The notes beneath the pieces were generated by a model that had not been told where the DNA came from, did not search any database, and saw only the letters and a program-made list of their open reading frames with translations. Below are positions 43,956 through 52,683 of a DNA stretch of 64,000 nucleotides, one piece after another (within the stretch, counting starts at the first letter, position 1; each line of letters starts with the position of its first letter). Origin of the DNA: an uncultured Actinomycetes bacterium (lineage in GTDB: Bacteria; Actinomycetota; Acidimicrobiia; IMCC26256; PALSA-610); NCBI GenBank assembly GCA_963706745.1, contig CAVPMX010000003.1, positions 101,132-165,131 on the forward strand, given 5' to 3'. Position numbers and translations under genes: made by a program.

Positions 43956-44823
43956 ATGCCCGATCCGACTGCCATTCCTCCCGCCGACGCCCGCAACCCG
44001 GCCGCGACTCCCGACCCCGCCGCACCAGGGCATGCCGCGTCGCCGGCCGGTACCTGGTCGGACCGTGGGCTGACCCCCCGTCTCCGCGGAACGCGCTTCG
44101 GCGAGGTGAGGTGGTTCGCCGAGATCGACTCGACGAACCGGTACCTACTGGACGAGGCAGCCGCGGACGCCCCGGAGGGGCTCGTCGCTGTGGCCGACGT
44201 TCAGACCGCCGGTCGCGGGCGGCTGGGCCGCCGCTGGGAGGCGCCCCCGGGGGCCTCGCTGCTCGTCTCGGTCCTGCTGCGCCCCGCGCTGTCCCCCGAG
44301 CGACTGCACCTCGTCACGATCGCAGCCGGTGTCGCCGCGGCCAGGGCCGTCCTCGAGCTGGCCGGGATCCGTGCCGGCCTGAAGTGGCCGAACGACCTCG
44401 TCGTCGGCGGGCGGAAGCTCGCCGGGCTGCTGGCGGAGGCCTCGGGCGGGCCGGCACTCGTAGTCGGAATGGGCCTCAATGTGCAGTTGGGAGTCGTTCC
44501 CGCCGGAGCTCGCCGAGATCGCGACCGCCTGCAACGTCGAGTCGGATGCGGAGCCGGCGCCCCAGGAGCTGCTCGTCTCGTGGCTGCGCGAGCTCGACGC
44601 GCTGCTGGACGGGCTCGCGGTCGACGGTGGTGCCGGACTCCTGGCCGAGTATCTCGATCGCTCCGCGACCGTGGGCATGCGCGTGAGAGTCGATCTCCAC
44701 GACCGGTCGTTCGAGTGCGACGCAACGGGCATCGACGACGACGGTCACCTGGTGGTGACCCGCGACGACGGCACGGCCGAGATCGTCACGGCGGGCGACG
44801 TCGTCAACCTCAGGGCCCGCTGA
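43956..44823 (+). CDS. birA: Biotin--[acetyl-CoA-carboxylase] ligase; frameshift ~44490
   Basis: DSTN, QTAGRGRLGRRW, KWPND, RKLAGLLAE and AGDVV. Confidence 0.95.
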
Positions 44824-44926
44824 GCACGCAGCGTGGGGCTCCTGCCGGACTCACGGCCGCGCGGAGGACCCTGACTATCTTTTGCGGAGCCACTCGGTCC
44901 AGCCGTCTACCGGAAACGAAGCTCGC

Positions 44927-46798
44927 TTGAACAAGTCCCGGCACGTCCGCTCGCTCGACGGACTGAGAGCGGTCGCTGTCGTCATGGTGATCCTGTTCCA
45001 CCTCGACGTGCCGGGGTTCGGCTTCGGTTTCATGGGTGTCGACGTCTTCTTCGTCCTGTCGGGCTTCCTGATCACCTCGCTTCTCGTCGGCGAGGACGAT
45101 CGGACCGGGCGCATCTCACTGGCGAACTTCTGGAGCCGGCGGATTCGGCGCCTGATGCCGGCACTCGCGGTGCTACTGGTAGTCACGTCGTTCGTGACGG
45201 CCGGCACGGCCACACGCTCGGAGAAGGAGTCGCTGCGCGGCGATCTCCTGTCGACGACGTTCTACGTGGCGAACTGGCACTTCGTCGATGAGAGCGACTA
45301 CTTCAACGACGAGGGAACCGAGTCGGCGCTCGAGCACACCTGGTCGCTCGCGATAGAGGAGCAGTTCTACTTCTTCTGGCCGGTCACGGTCGTGGGGCTC
45401 CTGCTCCTCGGTAGGCGACGGCCCCGTGTGCCGCTCGTCGCGACCGTGGGTCTTGCGGCCGCATCCGCCCTCCTGCTCGCTGCGCACTGGGCGCCCGACG
45501 CCGTCGAGCGCGCGTACATGGGTACCGACTCCCGCGTCTTCGAGCCACTCATCGGCGCCGTGGCGGCACTGCTTCTCCGGCATGCGGCCTTCAGGAACCT
45601 CGTGCTCCAGCGGGGGGCTGTGATCGAGAAGGTCGGCGCAGGCGCCATGGCCCTGGCGGCGTTCGCCGTGGCCTCGAACCCGAGGAACTACTACACCTAC
45701 GGAGCGCTGCTCGTCTCGGTCGCGACGGCGATGCTCGTGACCGTGCTGTGGTCGCGCAGCGGAGGTGCCCTGACGCGTCTCCTGGAGCCGCGACCGGTCG
45801 TCTGGATCGGTGCCCTCTCCTACGGCATCTACCTGTGGCACTGGCCGTTCATCGTCTGGCTCGACGTCGGCTCCGCCTCGGGAGCGGCGATCCTGCCCAG
45901 AGCGTCCGCGCTCGGTCTCACGCTCGCCGTCTCGGCCGCCTCGTACTACCTCGTGGAACAGCCGATAAGGAGGTCGCGCGCCAACATGTTGCTCACTCCT
46001 CGAAGGGTGGTTGCGGCGGTCCCGGTGATCCTCGCAGGCCTCGCCGTCATCGCCGTGGTGGCGACCCGCAATCCCGCTCCCGACGCGGACACCCCGGTGA
46101 TCCTCGTCGCCGGCGACTCGGTGGCGCTGCACCTCGTCCCGTATCTGGAGCGCGAGGCGGAGGACCGCGGATGGGTCGTCGTCTCGGCCGCCAGGGGCGG
46201 CTGCGGGGTCAGTGGCGACCACATCGTCCACGACGACGGCAAGACGCTGGCGAGCGGCGACAAGTGCCCGGACGAGATCAAGGCGAAGCAGGACGAGATG
46301 GTCGACGAGTTCGACCCCACAGTGGTGATTCGCTGGGACCGCTTCTCCCTGGCCGACTGGATCGCGCCGGACGGGCACCAGGTGCGTGCGGGGACGCCCG
46401 AGTTCTGGTCTCTGAGACGCGAGTCGCTGGCGAACGAGGTGGAGCGACTGGGACGAGGCGGAGCGATGGTTGCGCTCGTGGGGACGGAGCCGCTGGGCGT
46501 AGGGATAGAGACTTCGTGCGCTCCGGATGAGTGCAACGACTGGCTGAGTCGCCTGCTCGAGGACTACGGCGATCTCACCACGCCATGGAACGAGGTCCTG
46601 GCCGAGTACGCCGCGTCGCACACCGAAGAGGCGACGTTCGTCTCGATCACCGACACCGTCTGCCGTGTCGACGTCTCGCCCTGCGACGACCGCATCGACG
46701 GGGAGCCGGCGCGGCCCGACGGCAGGCACTACGAGGGCGATGGCGCCGAGCTCGCCGCCGAGGCGCTGCTCGACGAGCTGGAGCCGTTGATGCCGTAG
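44927..46798 (+). CDS. Acyltransferase_3 + SGNH domain O-acyltransferase (OatA/OafA-like)
   Basis: LDGLRAVAV, GVDVFFVLSGF, HTWSLAIEEQFY, SYGIYLWHWP, then SGNH-like GDSV…DGRH. Confidence 0.92.
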   Translation: MNKSRHVRSLDGLRAVAVVMVILFHLDVPGFGFGFMGVDVFFVLSGFLITSLLVGEDDRTGRISLANFWSRRIRRLMPALAVLLVVTSFVTAGTATRSEKESLRGDLLSTTFYVANWHFVDESDYFNDEGTESALEHTWSLAIEEQFYFFWPVTVVGLLLLGRRRPRVPLVATVGLAAASALLLAAHWAPDAVERAYMGTDSRVFEPLIGAVAALLLRHAAFRNLVLQRGAVIEKVGAGAMALAAFAVASNPRNYYTYGALLVSVATAMLVTVLWSRSGGALTRLLEPRPVVWIGALSYGIYLWHWPFIVWLDVGSASGAAILPRASALGLTLAVSAASYYLVEQPIRRSRANMLLTPRRVVAAVPVILAGLAVIAVVATRNPAPDADTPVILVAGDSVALHLVPYLEREAEDRGWVVVSAARGGCGVSGDHIVHDDGKTLASGDKCPDEIKAKQDEMVDEFDPTVVIRWDRFSLADWIAPDGHQVRAGTPEFWSLRRESLANEVERLGRGGAMVALVGTEPLGVGIETSCAPDECNDWLSRLLEDYGDLTTPWNEVLAEYAASHTEEATFVSITDTVCRVDVSPCDDRIDGEPARPDGRHYEGDGAELAAEALLDELEPLMP

Positions 46799-46858
46799 CC
46801 CTCGCGGATCGCCGCGGTCGCGGCGTTCGGAGTCGCCGGCGGAGTCGCGCGGATCTGC

Positions 46859-47696
46859 TCAGGGGTCGAGGTCGCGCTCGACGAGGGCGCGCAGGTCTGC
46901 CGCCGCACGTGCCGAGACGGGTCCCGGAGCGGCCGGGAGCTCCACCCCGTTCACTCGTGCGATCGGGTGCACCTCGCGAGTGGTGGAGGAGAGGAAGGCC
47001 TCGTCGCAGGAGAGGAGGTCGTCGGGCGAGAGGTCGGTCTCCTCGACCGGCACACCCGAGTCGGCGCAGACCTCGAGGATGAGGGCCCGTGTGACACCTA
47101 GGAGACACCCCGCCGAAGCAGGTGGGGTGCTCAGCACCCCGCCCCTCGCCAGGAAGAGGTTGGAGCCCGTGGCCTCGCAGAGGTCTGCCTCGCGTGTTGG
47201 GGAAGACCGCCTCGCCCGCGCCGCGCTCCTCGGCGTACGCGAGGGCTCGCACGTTCTCCGCGTACGAGATCGTCTTCAGCCCGGCGACCGCTCCGCCCTC
47301 GTTGCGGCTCCACGGGACGATGACGACGTCGACGTAGTCGGACCAGGGCTCGAACGGGGAGGCCACCACCAGCACGGTCGGGCGTGCGCCGGCACGGCTC
47401 GTGCCCGGTGGGCCCTCGCCACCGGTGACGGTGATCCGCAGGCGCGCCTCGGTGAGGTGATTCGCGGCGACGACGGCGTCCGCTGCCCGGCGCAGAACCG
47501 CCGCCTCGGGCAGGTCGAGCCCCAGCCCGGCGGCCGAGGTCGCGAGTCGTGCGAGGTGACGGCTCCAGGCGAACGGGATGCCGCGGTAGACGCGAAGCGT
47601 CTCGAAGACGCCGTCGCCGACGAGGAGCCCGCGGTCGAGCGGGGAGATCCTCGCCTCGGCCGAGTCGACGAGGTCGCCGTTCAGCCAGATGATCAC
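46859..47696 (-). CDS. Aminotransferase class IV (4-amino-4-deoxychorismate lyase/IlvE-like); frameshift ~47190
   Basis: WLNG, DRGLLVGDGVFET, LKTISY, LLGVTR and EAFLSST; coupled to pabB. Confidence 0.9.
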
Positions 47697-48981
47697 GACC
47701 CCACCCCCGAGCTCCGGTCGGACGCCACTCTCGCGCCGCTCGCCGCTCGGCTGCCGCGGGAGGCTGCGTCGAGAATCCGCCTCGCCTTCAGCTCCGTCTC
47801 GCGCCACTCGTCGAGGGGGTCGGAGTCGGCGACGATCCCGCCACCGACGCCGAGGTGGGTCGCATCGCGCGTGATCGTGAAGGTGCGGATGGCCACGGCC
47901 AGGTCGCAACGGCCATGGTCGGAGTCGATCCAGCCGACCGCACCGCAGTACGCACCGCGTCGCAAGGGCTCGAGGTCCTCGATCGCCTGCAGGACGCGTG
48001 GCTTCGGGGCGCCCGTGACCGAGGCGGGCGGGAAGGTGGCGCGGACCAGTTCGGCGAGGCCGACGTCGTCGCGTAGTCGGCCGCGCACGGTGCTGACCAG
48101 GTGGAAGAGCCCGGGGTGTGCCTCCACTTCGCAGAGAGCGTCGGCCCGGACCGACCCGTACTCGCAGACGCGACCGAGGTCGTTGCGCGCTAGGTCGACG
48201 ATCATCACGTTCTCGGCGCGGTCCTTCGCGCTGGCAGCGAGCAGGTCGGCGTCGGAGGCCGTGCCCTTGATCGGTCTCGTCTCGACGCTCGCGACCGTCG
48301 GTCGCCAGGTACCGCTCCGGCGACGCCGAGACGATCGAGAGGTCGAGTCGGCGCCACGGCACCGAACGAGATGAGCGAGGAGTGCGGCGCGGGATTGTGG
48401 CGCCAGAGCGCGGTGAAGAGAGCGACCGGGTCTGCGGGAACGGCGACCGTGAGCCGACGCGTGAGGTTGACCTGATAGCACTCGCCGGCCGCGAGCAGGT
48501 CGAGGATCTCCCGCACGCGACGCGACCATCCGTCCTCGTCGAGGCTGCTCGTCCAACCAGAGAGACCGGGGAGCGCGGCGGCGCCGCTTGTCGCGTCGCC
48601 GCGCGAGCCAGAGGGCGCGCTCGAGGGGCTCGCGTCCGGGTCCGTCGCCCTCGATCGTCGGCGTGCGCGATCCGGGGTCCGAGCACCAGCCGGCAGGGGA
48701 ACCGTGCGAACCCCAGGTCGGGGAGGCGCAGGTCGTCCTCGGCCGACGGGGCGATCCGTTCGACCGAGCGACCGAGGTCGTAGGCGAGGAACCCCGCCCA
48801 GAAGCCGCCGTCCCGCTCGATGCAGTCGAGCGCGACGAGGGCGTCGGGCCCCGACGCGACCCGGATCTCCGAGGGCGCACAGCAGAGGATCGTGCGGTCG
48901 CCGTCCGCGCAGCGCGGCGATCCCGGCCGCGGCGGGGAGATGGGCCAGGATGCTGCAGGGGTCGACCGGTCGATTGACCAC
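47693..48981 (-). CDS. pabB: Aminodeoxychorismate synthase component I (chorismate-binding); multiple frameshifts
   Basis: GECYQVNL, SPERYL, RPIKGT, KDRAENVMIVDLARNDLG, FPPASVTGAPK, VAIRT and GGGIVADS. Confidence 0.88.
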
Positions 48982-49015
48982 GCTCGGAGGCTAACAACCC
49001 GGCCAGAATGGGGAG

Positions 49016-50160
49016 ATGGACTTCGACCTGAATCCCGAGCAGCAGCAGTTCCGCGGTGTCGTGCGCGAGTTCGCCGAGGCCGAGATCGCCCCGTACTGCT
49101 CGGAGTGGGACCGGACCTCGGCCTTCCCCCTCGACGCCGTCGCGAAGATGGCGGAGCTCGGGCTCTTCGGCCTGGTCTTCCCCGAGGAGTACGGAGGGGC
49201 AGGAGCCGGCTACCTCACGTACTGCCTCGCGCTCGAGGAGCTCGCGCGCGTCGACGTCTCCACCGCGATGACGCTGGAGGCCGGCGTCAGCCTCGGTGCG
49301 ATGCCGTTCCTGCTGGCGGGTACGGAGGAGCAGAAGCAGGAGTACCTCGTGCCCATGGTCGAGGGCCGGGCACTCGGTGCCTTCGGGCTCACGGAGTCGA
49401 CGTCGGGATCCGACGCCGGGAACGTGGGGACACGTGCCGAGCTCGACGCGGGGGAGTGGGTGATCGACGGGCAGAAGACCTTCATCACGAACTCGGGAAC
49501 GGCGATCACCAAGTGCGTGACGATCACGGCGCGCACCGGCCCGGGCGAGATCTCGAACGTCGTGGTCGACGCAGGGACGACCGGCTTCGAGGTGCTCCCT
49601 GCGTATCGCAAGATGGGCTGGCGCGCGAGCGATACCCACGAGCTCGTCTTCGACGGTTGCAGGGTCCCCGAGTCGAACCTCCTGGGCGAGAGGGGCGACG
49701 GGTTCAAGCTCTTCATGCGCATCCTCGACTCGGGCGCGTCGCCATCGCAGCCGTATCCGTAGGGCTCGCCCAGGCATGCCTCGACGCGGCCCTCGAGCAC
49801 GCGAAGGCGCGCGAAGCCTTCGGGGGCCCGATCGGTCGATACCAGGCCGTCGCCTTCAAGTGCGCCGACATGGCGCTCGCGATCGAGAACGCGAGGAGCC
49901 TCGTCTGGAAAGCAGCGTGGATGCACGAGCGGGGTGAGCCGATCCGGCAGATCGGCGCGATGGCGAAGCTCTACGCCAGCGAGGCAGCCGTCACCGCGAC
50001 GTGCGAGGCGCTGCAGATCCTCGGGGGGTACGGGTACATGGACGAGTCGCCGGTGAGCCGCTACTACCGCGACGCGAAGATCCTCGAGATCGGGGAGGGG
50101 ACGAGTGAGATCCAGCGCCTGGTCATCGCCCGCGGACTGGGCCTGCCGGTCGACACGTGA
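49016..50160 (+). CDS. Acyl-CoA dehydrogenase; frameshift ~49735
   Basis: FGLTESTSGSDA, KTFITN, KMGWRASDT, REAFG, GGYGY and EIGEGTSEIQR. Confidence 0.95.
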
Positions 50161-50415
50161 GTGGGGGGCGTGAGGCGCGGATGCCTCGAGCCGACTGGGC
50201 GAGCAATCGCCGACTGATGTCCACGGTGGATCGGCCTGATGTGGCGTTGGAGGGGCGGGGCTGAGACGGTCACCTTGCACGAGAGCGGTCAGCCGGTGGT
50301 CGCAGGGCTCCGGGCCGCGATCGTGACGGCGGTACCCGTCTCGAACGGCGCGGGCGGGCCGGGGCGCCTCGCCTGAGAGGCCGTCCGGGCAGCGTCCGCG
50401 AGCCGGGAGATGAGG

Positions 50416-50429
50416 GTGACCTACGTCAC
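50416..50429. promoter_or_regulatory. Candidate CRP/GlxR-family binding site
   Basis: GTGA-CCTACG-TCAC matches the GTGA-N6-TCAC core. Confidence 0.4.
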
Positions 50430-50539
50430 GCCACGGGCCGTCCGGGTTTACGGCCGCCCCCAGAACGGCATTCCGGCATGAATCCGACGCTCCCAGCGCG
50501 CACCGGACGAGCAAGTGCTCACGTTGAGTGAGATCCTGT

Positions 50540-50565
50540 TCAGGTCTCGGAAGCTCCGGGCCGAT
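50540..50565 (+). promoter_or_regulatory. Candidate sigma-28 (FliA/WhiG-type) promoter
   Basis: TCAG (50540-50543), 16 bp spacer, GCCGAT (50560-50565); predicted start ~50573, just before the structured leader. Confidence 0.55.
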
Positions 50566-50592
50566 CAACCCAGTGACCCGAGATGGGTCACA

Positions 50593-50664
50593 GGACGAGC
50601 GTAGATCCGCGGGCCCCTATCTGGTCGCCTGGGCCGCGGGGAGCTAGTGGCGAACCCACCGTCC
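50593..50664 (+). ncRNA. c-di-GMP-II-like riboswitch aptamer
   Basis: P1 GGACG/CGTCC; AGC/GCT; P3 CCGCGgGCCC/GGGCCGCGG; pseudoknot TCGCC (50625-50629)/GGCGA (50649-50653); conserved GGAGCTAGT; ~30 nt before the subtilase ATG. Confidence 0.75.
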
Positions 50665-50693
50665 ACCGAGCGTACGCCAGCCGGAGGTGGGGG

Positions 50694-52438
50694 ATGACCA
50701 GGTCGGAACGTACTCCGAAGAGCAGAGCAAGAGGCCCGAGGCTGCGCGCCAGAACCGCCTGCGTTCTGGTGCTCGTTCTCCTCGCCGGGGCGATGCTGGG
50801 GATCTCGGCAGCCGGCGCGAGGGTGCCGACCGACGAGGTCCTGATCCAGGTCGAGCCGGGGATGGAGTCCGTCGTCGCCGCAGAGGTGCGCGCCCTGGGA
50901 GGCAGACCCGACGAGCCGCTCGAGATCCTCAACGGGTTCGTCGCGGAGGTCCCGATCGCCGCGCTGGGAGGCATCCGCTCGATACCCGGAGTCACCTCCG
51001 TGACCGAGGGCTTCGACATCGCCTTCGACCCGGCCTTCTACGACCCCGAGAAGGTCTCGAGCTCGATGTACCAGGTCGCGCTGGAACGTCGGGGCAGACC
51101 GTCTCTGGAAGGCGGGATACACCGGCGCCGGGATCGACGTGGCTGTCATCGACACCGGCGTCGCGCCCCTTCCCGAGTTCGAAGGCCGCCTCGTCACCGG
51201 CCCGGACCTCTCCTTCGGATCGGGTGACGCCCCGCCGGGCCACGACCAGTTCGGGCACGGAACCCACCTCGCAGGGATCATCGCCGGCCGGGACCCCGCC
51301 GTGGCGCTGAATCCCGGCTCGCTGAAGAACGACGCAAAGCGGCGCTTCGTCGGCGTCGCTCCCGGAGCAAGGATCGTGAACCTCAAGGTCGCGGCGCCCG
51401 ACGGTGCCGTCGACGTCTCGCAGGTGATCGCAGCGATCGACTGGGTGGTCCAGAACCGCACTGCCAACGGCCTGAACATCCGCGTGCTCAACCTCGCCTA
51501 CGGCACCGACGGCCTCCAGGACTACCGGATCGACCCGCTCACCTTCGCGGTGGAGAACGCCTGGATGCACGGAATCGTCGTGGTCGTGGCAGCAGGCAAC
51601 GACGGATATGGCTCGCCACGCCTGAACAACCCTGCATACGACCCCTACGTGATCGCGGTCGGCGCCGCGGACACGAACCGCACCACCAAGCACGACGACG
51701 ACTTCGTCGCCGACTTCTCCAGCCGCGGCGACCGCAAGCGGCAACCCGACGTCGACGCTCCGGGACGCTCCATCGTGGGCCTGCGCGCTCCCGGATCTCT
51801 GGTCGACGAGGCCTTCCCGGCCGCCCGGGTCGGGACGACCCAGCTACGGGGCAGCGGCACCTCGCAGGCGACCGCCGTCACCGCAGGCGCGGCGGCCCTG
51901 CTGCTCCAGCGGTACCCGCACCTCACGCCGGACATGGTCAAGGCCGTCCTCGCCCAGACCGCCAGGGAGATCGCGCCGGGCATCGCGCCGGGCATCGCGA
52001 AGCGGCACGGCGACGACGATGACGACGATGACGACGATCGACGATGACGATGGCGATGACGCACTGAGCATCGACCTCGCCAAGGCGCACGAAGCCGTCA
52101 AGGACCTTCGCGAAGGTGAGCTCAGGTACGTACAGCGCTACACGCGGGCCACCGGCCTGGGCTCGCTGGAGGCAGCACGGGGCAGCGAGCACGTCGTGGC
52201 CGACGACGCCGTCCTGAGCGGGGAGGTCGACGTCACCGGTGCACCCTGGGACGGTCGGAGTTGGAGGGACGATGCCTGGAACGGCCGGAGCTGGCGGAGC
52301 GACGGCTGGCTGGGCCGCAGCTGGCGGAGCGACGGCTGGCTGGGCCGGAGCTGGCGGAGCGACGCCTGGCTGGGTCGCAGCTGGCGCGGCGGCGCCTGGC
52401 TCGCAGCGGAGTTCGTACCCACGGACCCGCTCTGGTAG
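50694..52438 (+). CDS. Secreted S8 subtilase with propeptide, poly-Asp tract and C-terminal Trp pentapeptide repeats; frameshifts ~51085 and ~52039
   Basis: SD GGAGG and a signal peptide. Catalytic VIDTG, HGTHLAG, AAGN and GTSQA are all present. Confidence 0.9.
52012..52060 (+). repeat. GAC/GAT microsatellite encoding poly-Asp
   Basis: Run of GAY codons interrupted by one extra C (~52039) and one GGC codon. Confidence 0.85.
52247..52402 (+). repeat. 30-bp tandem repeat x5 encoding (WxGRS-WRxDx)
   Basis: WDGRSWRDDA WNGRSWRSDG WLGRSWRSDG WLGRSWRSDA WLGRSWRGGA WL. Confidence 0.95.
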
Positions 52439-52498
52439 GAGGCAATAGGGCACGATCACCGAGATCGTGGGGTCCCGGACAACGGGAGCCCAGGAAGT

Positions 52499-52529
52499 GG
52501 CCGGCGCGCGGAGGGTCCGCGCGCCGGCC
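52499..52529 (+). terminator. Strong hairpin terminator after the subtilase
   Basis: Perfect 14-bp stem GGCCGGCGCGCGGA-GGG-TCCGCGCGCCGGCC followed by TTGTG. Confidence 0.75.
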
Positions 52530-52683
52530 TTGTGCATCTCCGCTCCGGCACTCGCGCTGCGGTCGCGGCGGAGCCGATCGGTGGCGTGCCGCTGCAACCC
52601 GGCTGAGCGTCGCGAGATCTTCACCCTTCCCCCACACCTCCGGCGACCGGCGTGACCGGTCGCGTCGGTAGACTTCGCCTGCC

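Follow-up and report, generated by a model that had tools for sequence, protein, structure and literature searches.

A subtilase with a Trp-pentapeptide tail behind a variant class II riboswitch: candidate arm of a peptide-to-c-di-GMP circuit

We analysed a 64,000-nucleotide stretch (C3:101132-165131, hereafter the window) of the 3.45 Mb, 79.65% complete genome of an uncultured soil actinomycete, in which a subtilase gene lies behind a predicted sigma-28/WhiG-type promoter and a riboswitch of the cyclic di-GMP (c-di-GMP) class II type, and ends in pentapeptide repeats with a Trp at every fifth residue. Each part of this unit belongs to a known kind. We take the whole to be genuine and under selection, and see in it more readily an arm of a candidate peptide-to-c-di-GMP circuit than a matrix protease that stands alone. 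We give an even chance to the proposal that the Trp-tail protease is the self-processing precursor of a peptide signal read by a membrane sensor with a MASE9-like domain. The counts given below take in two unpublished genomes, G051 (loci L103 and L147, and one of the 18 riboswitch-protease pairs) and G101 (locus L239), without which each count shifts by one, the conclusions being independent of them.

An earlier note on the same DNA had described a self-contained unit inside an otherwise conserved housekeeping region. The block lies between housekeeping genes, and its site is empty in a genome of the same genus (G001): the alignment covers window positions 44001-50161 and resumes from 52611 with 46 nt between, the acyl-CoA dehydrogenase gene being joined almost directly to the region upstream of the LCP gene. 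Because of this empty site, and because the protease occurs within 1.5 kb of LCP at none of 29 LCP orthologue loci, we regard the block between the two genes as an insertion. The unit is not self-contained: it duplicates an operon of contig C4 and has lost the sensor gene. The C4 operon comprises an intact 572-residue paralogue, 74% identical at the DNA level and placed behind a second aptamer with the same leader, and a second gene encoding a MASE9-like membrane domain, with the predicted fold of an ECF S-component, fused to GAF-GGDEF-EAL, which has no counterpart in the window copy. The two leaders share conserved islands (the GTGA-N6-TCAC palindrome, promoter, hairpin, aptamer and Shine-Dalgarno (SD) sequence) between diverged spacers. 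A third Trp-tail protease of this genome, with ATRW units, precedes a MASE9-like membrane domain fused to a histidine kinase, so that both genomic copies of this domain stand behind a Trp-tail protease. No plasmid match to the stretch was found at E 1e-60.

The proposal of a peptide precursor read by the sensor draws on the following lines of evidence. First, the tail and the sensor domain are paired throughout the family, the homologous loci of which are mostly from Actinomycetota, and many from Acidimicrobiia. Trp repeats occur in 76 of the 78 distant homologues taken from GTDB, and the membrane sensor domain stands directly behind the protease at 40 of the 71 GTDB loci with enough downstream DNA (40/56 without Dactylosporangium), at 18/28 related loci and at 11/11 loci of an ASRW-type subfamily, the related and ASRW-type regions having been chosen from protease matches in relatives and 4 of 37 regions having failed a coverage filter. 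Of 301 genomes sampled across the phylum 94 have the sensor domain, with a Trp tail directly upstream at 18 of the best 30 sensor loci. Cultured strains of Blastococcus and Geodermatophilus carry the protease-sensor pair. Second, the output of the sensor varies (GGDEF-EAL or histidine kinase), and the sensor domain is therefore the constant partner of the protease; a GGDEF/EAL gene, the proximity of which the earlier note had suggested checking, is present in 53/71 distant loci. Third, the tail is predicted to be disordered: in the AlphaFold model of the paralogue, built with 73 aligned sequences, the predicted local distance difference test (pLDDT) score is <50 over the repeats at residues 474-532. 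The ordered solenoid of the folded pentapeptide-repeat (beta-solenoid) proteins is not seen in this monomer model, which is compatible with order on assembly. Together with the consistent membrane-sensor partner, the predicted disorder speaks against the earlier description of a surface or matrix protein.

Fourth, the sensor model (pLDDT 91, short loops) has the fold of an ECF S-component: such components and their kin fill the first 15 places among the structural matches (Z 8.8-11.7, the next row being at 7.2; best match with Z 11.7, root-mean-square deviation 3.7 and 166 aligned residues). The ECF S-component fold binds small ligands from outside. The C4 sensor protein displays GGDEF, EVL and DDFGTG motifs. 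MASE9 itself (PF20972) was weakly matched by 17 of 78 sensor family members at E<=0.01 (best E 3e-6) and was not matched by the C4 protein, while the Atlas neighbours of the sensor carry MASE9 in 13-24% of their members. The domain resembles MASE9, as presented in the available part of Galperin and Chou (bioRxiv 10.1101/2021.11.05.467447), in being a multi-pass membrane domain with several outputs and no ligand given; it differs in being only a distant relative, and that part of their text has neither protease nor peptidase.

Fifth, we compared 25 strong sensor loci with no protease in the surrounding DNA. At 11 of them, in a screen of sensor loci only, a divergent open reading frame (ORF) of 32-76 codons, hereafter mini-precursor, is preceded by an SD sequence, is hydrophobic at its N-terminus and ends in a pentapeptide (e.g. 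GIRWS, GGLWR, LIHWR, AITWR, GSRMH and GGKMH, the fourth place being Trp, Met or His). Seven of these ORFs match the promoter pattern described below and five lie behind the same aptamer type. The sensors of these loci form one clade (quick IQ-TREE run, SH-aLRT 98, 147 rows, unrooted) with a protease-linked member whose unit is GSRW, which suggests, at the level of sequence, that a minimal precursor replaced the protease-fused one in a single event, the direction of which is left undecided by the unrooted tree. At four of the loci (L200, L204, L208 and L210) a separate sigma-28-type promoter, on the strand opposite to the mini-precursor, serves the divergent sensor gene.

The repeats of the family can be written (G-x-x-W-x)n, the unit being uniform within a gene and varying between loci (GMSW, GTSW, GRTW, ASRW, GSRW, GHYW and GHKW). 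In the window they take the form of GRSWR alternating with xDxWL/N, the GRSWR unit being shared with the paralogue. The Trp/Arg repeat tail of the earlier note holds for the repeats, with a five-residue unit and Trp at every fifth residue, and fails for Arg, which we rejected as a defining residue because it is not conserved across the family. The acidic tail of that note proved to be an internal Asp-rich linker of the window copy only, and it was likewise rejected as a family feature. Elsewhere in the family, four loci (L032, L037, L045 and L168) each carry four or five Trp-tail proteases in tandem, with units differing between neighbours, followed by one sensor gene. In Dactylosporangium (L061-L087) a segment that looked ricin-B-like by eye is inserted before a short GHYW tail, and 14/15 loci have an upstream GGDEF or EAL gene without the sensor domain on the opposite strand.

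Table 1. Features of the inserted block, in window coordinates
Feature	Position	Strand	Remarks
Inserted block	50162..52610		between acyl-CoA dehydrogenase gene and LCP gene
GTGA-N6-TCAC palindrome, CRP-like	50416..50429		conserved island in paralogue
Possible BldD box	50519..50531		1 mismatch to nTnACnC(A/T)GnGTnAn; absent from the earlier note's list
Sigma-28/WhiG-type promoter (inferred)	50540..50567	+	TCAG 50540-50543, N16, GCCGATCA 50560-50567; start predicted near 50573
5' hairpin abutting aptamer	50573..50591	+	at predicted transcript start
c-di-GMP-II-type aptamer	50588..50669	+	best Rfam match RF03170 c-di-GMP-II-GCG, 53.1 bits, cut-off 47.9
Expression platform	50655..50691	+	anti-SD CCCACCGUCC 50655-50664, including 3' strand of P1; SD GGAGGUGGG 50683-50691
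Protease N-terminus: signal-peptide-like segment and propeptide	50694..51085	+	Arg-rich start, hydrophobic stretch, AGA (by eye)
S8 catalytic domain	51088..52040	+	Asp 51151, His 51256, oxyanion Asn 51598, Ser 51862
Asp-rich linker	about 52005-52064	+	internal, ~130 residues before end; no counterpart in paralogue
C-terminal part	52042..52438	+	conserved GSLEAARG segment, then Trp pentapeptide repeats about 52247-52400
Three 3' hairpins	52451-52469, 52470-52491, 52499-52529	+	second z -3.4, third z -5.1

All elements listed in the earlier note were found, in the order given there (Table 1). Membership of Peptidase S8 is borne out by the match to the subtilase family PF00082 (E 1e-42; 146.6 bits against a cut-off of 21.8), with the motifs VIDTG, HGTH, AAGN and GTSQA and an intact triad and oxyanion Asn. 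The N-terminal part is 62% and the catalytic domain 82% identical to that of the intact paralogue, and the model resembles pro-subtilisins. Among these, Tk-SP (PDB 3AFG; 29% identity, E 1.5e-24) has the same propeptide and S8 fold, but a folded C-terminal domain where the present protein has the predicted disordered Trp-repeat tail. The last of the 3' hairpins, which has 14 perfect pairs and lacks a U-run, is likely a terminator, and it was missed by a scan for terminators with a U-tail; the second and third, like the 5' hairpin (z -4.5), are more stable than all of 200 shuffled sequences. Further upstream in the window, an Acyltransferase-3/SGNH fusion gene of lower GC (44882-46798, GC 0.66-0.69) is possibly another insertion, yet G001 aligns across it.

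The aptamer is the sole Rfam match in the window. Its helices and pseudoknot covary over 30 aptamers, a set picked by the covariance model itself (95.7% of cells paired; 17/23 pairs changed on both sides). It has in common with the canonical c-di-GMP-II riboswitch (RF01786; PDB 3Q3Z) and with the GCG variant RF03170 the P1-P3 plus pseudoknot fold and the position in the 5' untranslated region, and differs by the extra 5' hairpin and by a pocket reading A-C-A where these have A69-A70-G73 (canonical) or G-C-G (Rfam consensus). Hairpins of >=5 pairs with unrelated stem sequences occupy the same place in 17/36 leaders (p<=0.05). RF03170 matches occur in 78/101 genomes and lie directly upstream of 18 of the 68 protease matches in 100 related genomes, as read by eye with nine aptamer matches outside those listed. 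The class II riboswitch was found with the aptamer hidden Markov model at none of 73 distant loci and none of 11 ASRW-type loci, and an Rfam search of 15 of the 78 GTDB loci gave one match, a class I aptamer (GGC variant) at the same place of a Chloroflexota (Anaerolineaceae) orthologue. The association of riboswitch and protease orthologues, which the earlier note had proposed to look for, thus exists in the relatives and was not found at the distant loci, and the riboswitch wiring of the protease is lineage-limited.

The 3' strand of P1 also serves as an anti-SD sequence: in 22/34 leaders the free fold has it paired with the SD region. In the window the SD has a predicted unpaired probability of 0.10 in the free fold and of 0.68 with P1 forced; with P1 forced in all 34 leaders, the SD becomes accessible in 15, is closed off in 2 and stays unchanged in 17, the paralogue being among the latter. 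Because of this double use of the P1 strand, and because forced P1 frees the SD in 15/34 leaders, the modelled folds make the riboswitch likely a translational ON switch. A transcription-terminator platform was rejected, as no U-run lies between the aptamer and the start.

The canonical c-di-GMP-II contacts of the ligand are A69, A70 and G73 (PMC13715770; the pocket structure is also covered in the available part of PMC7288161), and two of the three differ both in the window and in the paralogue, by an inferred mapping of positions. Among 34 relatives the pocket reads ACG in 22, AAG in 8, AAC in 3 and ACA in 1. As the A-C-A pocket departs from A69, A70 and G73, we no more than lean towards c-di-GMP as the ligand. 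It is possible, and bears on the riboswitch independently of the other alternatives weighed below, that the aptamer senses a different nucleotide signal (pGpG or a mixed cyclic dinucleotide), in which case promoter and riboswitch would open together as c-di-GMP breaks down. The changes A70 to C and G73 to A at canonical contacts in both paralogues, A70C in 23/34 relatives and the existence of a class II variant that binds cGAMPs (PMC13715770) agree with such a change of ligand; the gene context rich in c-di-GMP genes, the A-A-G pocket kept in 8/34 relatives before the same kinds of gene, and the class I aptamer in the same place of the Chloroflexota orthologue argue against it. The paper that defined the GCG variant reportedly left its ligand open.

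Several related aptamers stand before other genes. A c-di-GMP-II-like subtype (45.9 bits in this genome, just under the cut-off) lies directly upstream of a gene that looked moaA-like by eye in this genome (L002:1501-1584; C7:191147), in G001 (L294) and in G036 (L109); such a target is odd for the c-di-GMP-II class, and the subtype is a candidate for another ligand. In two genomes from a different family (L093, L102) a histidine-phosphatase-like gene lies behind a related subtype. A subtype with a G-A-G pocket heads long secreted proteins (L090, L091, L094, L100, L101, L105 and L110), several with sigma-70-like promoters and BldD-box-like spacers, and at L092, L097 and L114 a CRP-like site, a sigma-28 promoter and an aptamer head a conserved 234-residue secreted protein with no family assigned.

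With regard to the promoter, a sigma-28-type site stands at a fixed distance from the aptamer in 21/34 related riboswitches, compared with 0.002 per 31-nt window genome-wide, the pattern having been tuned on those same sequences; this is the co-occurrence of riboswitch and promoter that the earlier note had asked about. The strict published WhiG query (T(A/C)AA-N16-GCCGA or CTCA-N16-17-GCCGA) matches the promoter of the paralogue and misses that of the window copy by one base of the -35 element, the TCAGG form of which is common in relatives at equal distance from the aptamer. Genome-wide the motif has 31 sites, many of them probably due to chance; among the 31 are sites ahead of each of the three proteases with a Trp tail, and also of two type IV pilin-like and three GGDEF genes. 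Upstream of the distant homologues it is weak (10/69 against 4/69 on the reverse strand, with estimated starts), and a sigma-70 promoter scan found none.

The earlier note suggested that c-di-GMP may act at two levels. For a control at the promoter the genome holds the parts: a WhiG2-type sigma on C4, the gene of which is frameshifted, two RsiG, and a BldD with the RxD-X8-RxxD motif. The BldD, RsiG and WhiG genes are of a kind expected in Actinomycetota, and we place the genome in its class by inference. The C4 sigma has the K/G/R and sigma4 residues for c-di-GMP contact, placed by what we take to be their sequence context. The promoter could instead be read by the second, WhiG1-like sigma on C2 (TIGR02479 over the cut-off), which is devoid of these contact residues; its gene lies at L005:7308-10618 beside genes that look csrA-, fliW- and flgN-like by eye, and searches of this incomplete genome for flagellin and FlhA were negative. 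RsiG holds WhiG2 off at high c-di-GMP (bioRxiv 10.64898/2026.01.14.699351), so that an ON riboswitch would have the opposite sign to an RsiG-controlled WhiG2, and the two c-di-GMP levels would act in opposite directions. The promoter form, the pilin and diguanylate cyclase/phosphodiesterase co-targets, the WhiG2-type sigma and the two RsiG recall the WhiG-RsiG-(c-di-GMP) switch and the Rubrobacter regulon, where the searched text and supplements of PMC8325347 and bioRxiv 10.64898/2026.01.14.699351, which may lack gene-level annotations, list no protease, peptide or riboswitch target.

Two other sites lie upstream. The GTGA-N6-TCAC palindrome has a genome-wide chance of 0.007 (strict) to 0.03 (loose) per 260 nt, and similar sites precede 13/34 related riboswitches, there about 100 nt nearer the promoter. 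It keeps the core of the CRP regulon site (TGTGA-N6-TCACA), but lies about 150 nt upstream of the predicted start, and one CRP-family match over the cut-off was found in the genome. The BldD-box-like site (consensus from PMC7374567) has a chance of 0.012 per 260 nt and is poorly kept in the paralogue.

In the mechanism that we infer, the sigma-28 promoter would fire as c-di-GMP falls, being off at high c-di-GMP if WhiG2-RsiG reads it, and the riboswitch would free the ribosome site and allow translation while its ligand remains. The protease would then be exported, lose its propeptide and cut its own tail into short peptides, which would bind the S-component-like domain of the C4 GAF-GGDEF-EAL protein and thereby shift the cyclase/phosphodiesterase balance in one direction or the other. 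The window copy shares its GRSWR unit with the paralogue and would contribute further signal in trans. If the riboswitch ligand is c-di-GMP, the two gates would form a band-pass filter giving a pulse of signal as c-di-GMP falls.

Several observations weigh against this proposal. The pairing is not exclusive, as 15 Dactylosporangium loci have the tail and no sensor domain in the locus, and 14/25 of the protease-less sensor loci have neither protease nor mini-precursor nearby. The mini-precursors all come from a single clade and count as one event, their likeness to the tail concerns 4-5 residues, and 6/11 have Met or His in place of Trp. Most tails (GSSWS-type) have no obvious dedicated cleavage motif. 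The Z-scores of the sensor model are below the 13 that the tool asks of helical bundles. Tail charge and acidic sensor residues, which agreed in a raw count (23/34 against 3/79), found no support in a tree-aware test (5-6 independent pairs, p 0.5-1). Lastly, frame breaks near 51085 and 52040, in line with the indel load of the assembly, split the window gene into three frames.

Part of this evidence would also fit a protease whose target is the sensor or, by analogy with LapG in the LapD system, a third surface protein, the Trp tail being an attached segment for docking or membrane tethering. The catalytic residues vary little or not at all among 73 homologues, interfacial Trp repeats could serve as a membrane tether, and gene pairing alone does not distinguish a ligand from a docking arm. 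We nevertheless find this arrangement unlikely, because one clade has, under the same promoter and riboswitch, no catalytic domain but just a signal-like segment and one pentapeptide, and because the loops of the sensor are short and its predicted fold is of a kind that binds small ligands.

Still less probable is a view close to that of the earlier note, of a protease of the surface or matrix, or for dispersal, that would be merely co-regulated with c-di-GMP enzymes and would use its tail to bind the envelope or to polymerise. Sigma-28-type motifs do precede pilin-like genes too, other riboswitches of the class head large secreted proteins in relatives, and Dactylosporangium homologues have, by eye, an added carbohydrate-binding-like segment and no sensor; such a protease would not, however, account for a sensor domain that follows it whether the output is a c-di-GMP enzyme or a histidine kinase, and its tail has no predicted fold. 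That the window copy is a decaying duplicate (a pseudogene), the C4 operon alone being functional, we consider the least probable, for against its two frame breaks, expanded Asp run and missing sensor gene stand a similar rate of breaks in the neighbouring housekeeping genes of this indel-rich assembly (the UDP-glucose dehydrogenase gene has 4 frame switches in 1.3 kb, the acyl-CoA dehydrogenase gene has 1 and the LCP gene 0) and in whiG, 83 synonymous to 43 non-synonymous codon changes in the catalytic core, and leader elements kept between diverged spacers.

The proposal of a self-processing peptide precursor finds its nearest likeness in the Phr/CSF pentapeptides of Bacillus and in the yeast alpha-factor precursor with Kex2, which are exported precursors with short C-terminal or tandem peptides processed by subtilisin-family enzymes. 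They differ in that their receptors are Rap, after import by Opp, or a G protein-coupled receptor, whereas here protease and repeats form one chain and the candidate receptor is an S-component-fold domain fused to GGDEF-EAL or a kinase; the comparison with pheromone-receptor systems of the Phr/SHP type is one of anatomy and gene pairing. In agreement with the earlier note, which knew of no functional description of this combination, our literature searches, with most subscription journals outside their scope, found none for a Trp-tailed subtilase with a MASE9-type sensor or for class II riboswitches at WhiG promoters.

Tentatively, we extend the proposal to an undescribed actinobacterial peptide signalling, in which a subtilase would be its own pheromone polyprotein, with many Trp pentapeptides, and an ECF-S-fold receptor would be fused to c-di-GMP enzymes or kinases; in this Acidimicrobiales-type lineage, production would be governed by a WhiG promoter together with a variant class II riboswitch, the latter either opposite in sign, so as to form the band-pass gate, or changed in its ligand, and the window would hold a booster copy acting in trans. 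To our knowledge, few direct inputs to bacterial cyclases and phosphodiesterases are peptides. What the window itself adds is the regulatory wiring, the putatively trans-acting duplicate, and a clade with a mini-precursor in place of the protease under the same control. For the GCG-type class II riboswitch, for which we found no reported ligand, the unit names an RNA to probe, and for the MASE9-type sensors, which have no known ligand, it offers a candidate five-residue ligand and its receptor. It further points to a way in which a timed gate could arise from a riboswitch coupled to a WhiG promoter.

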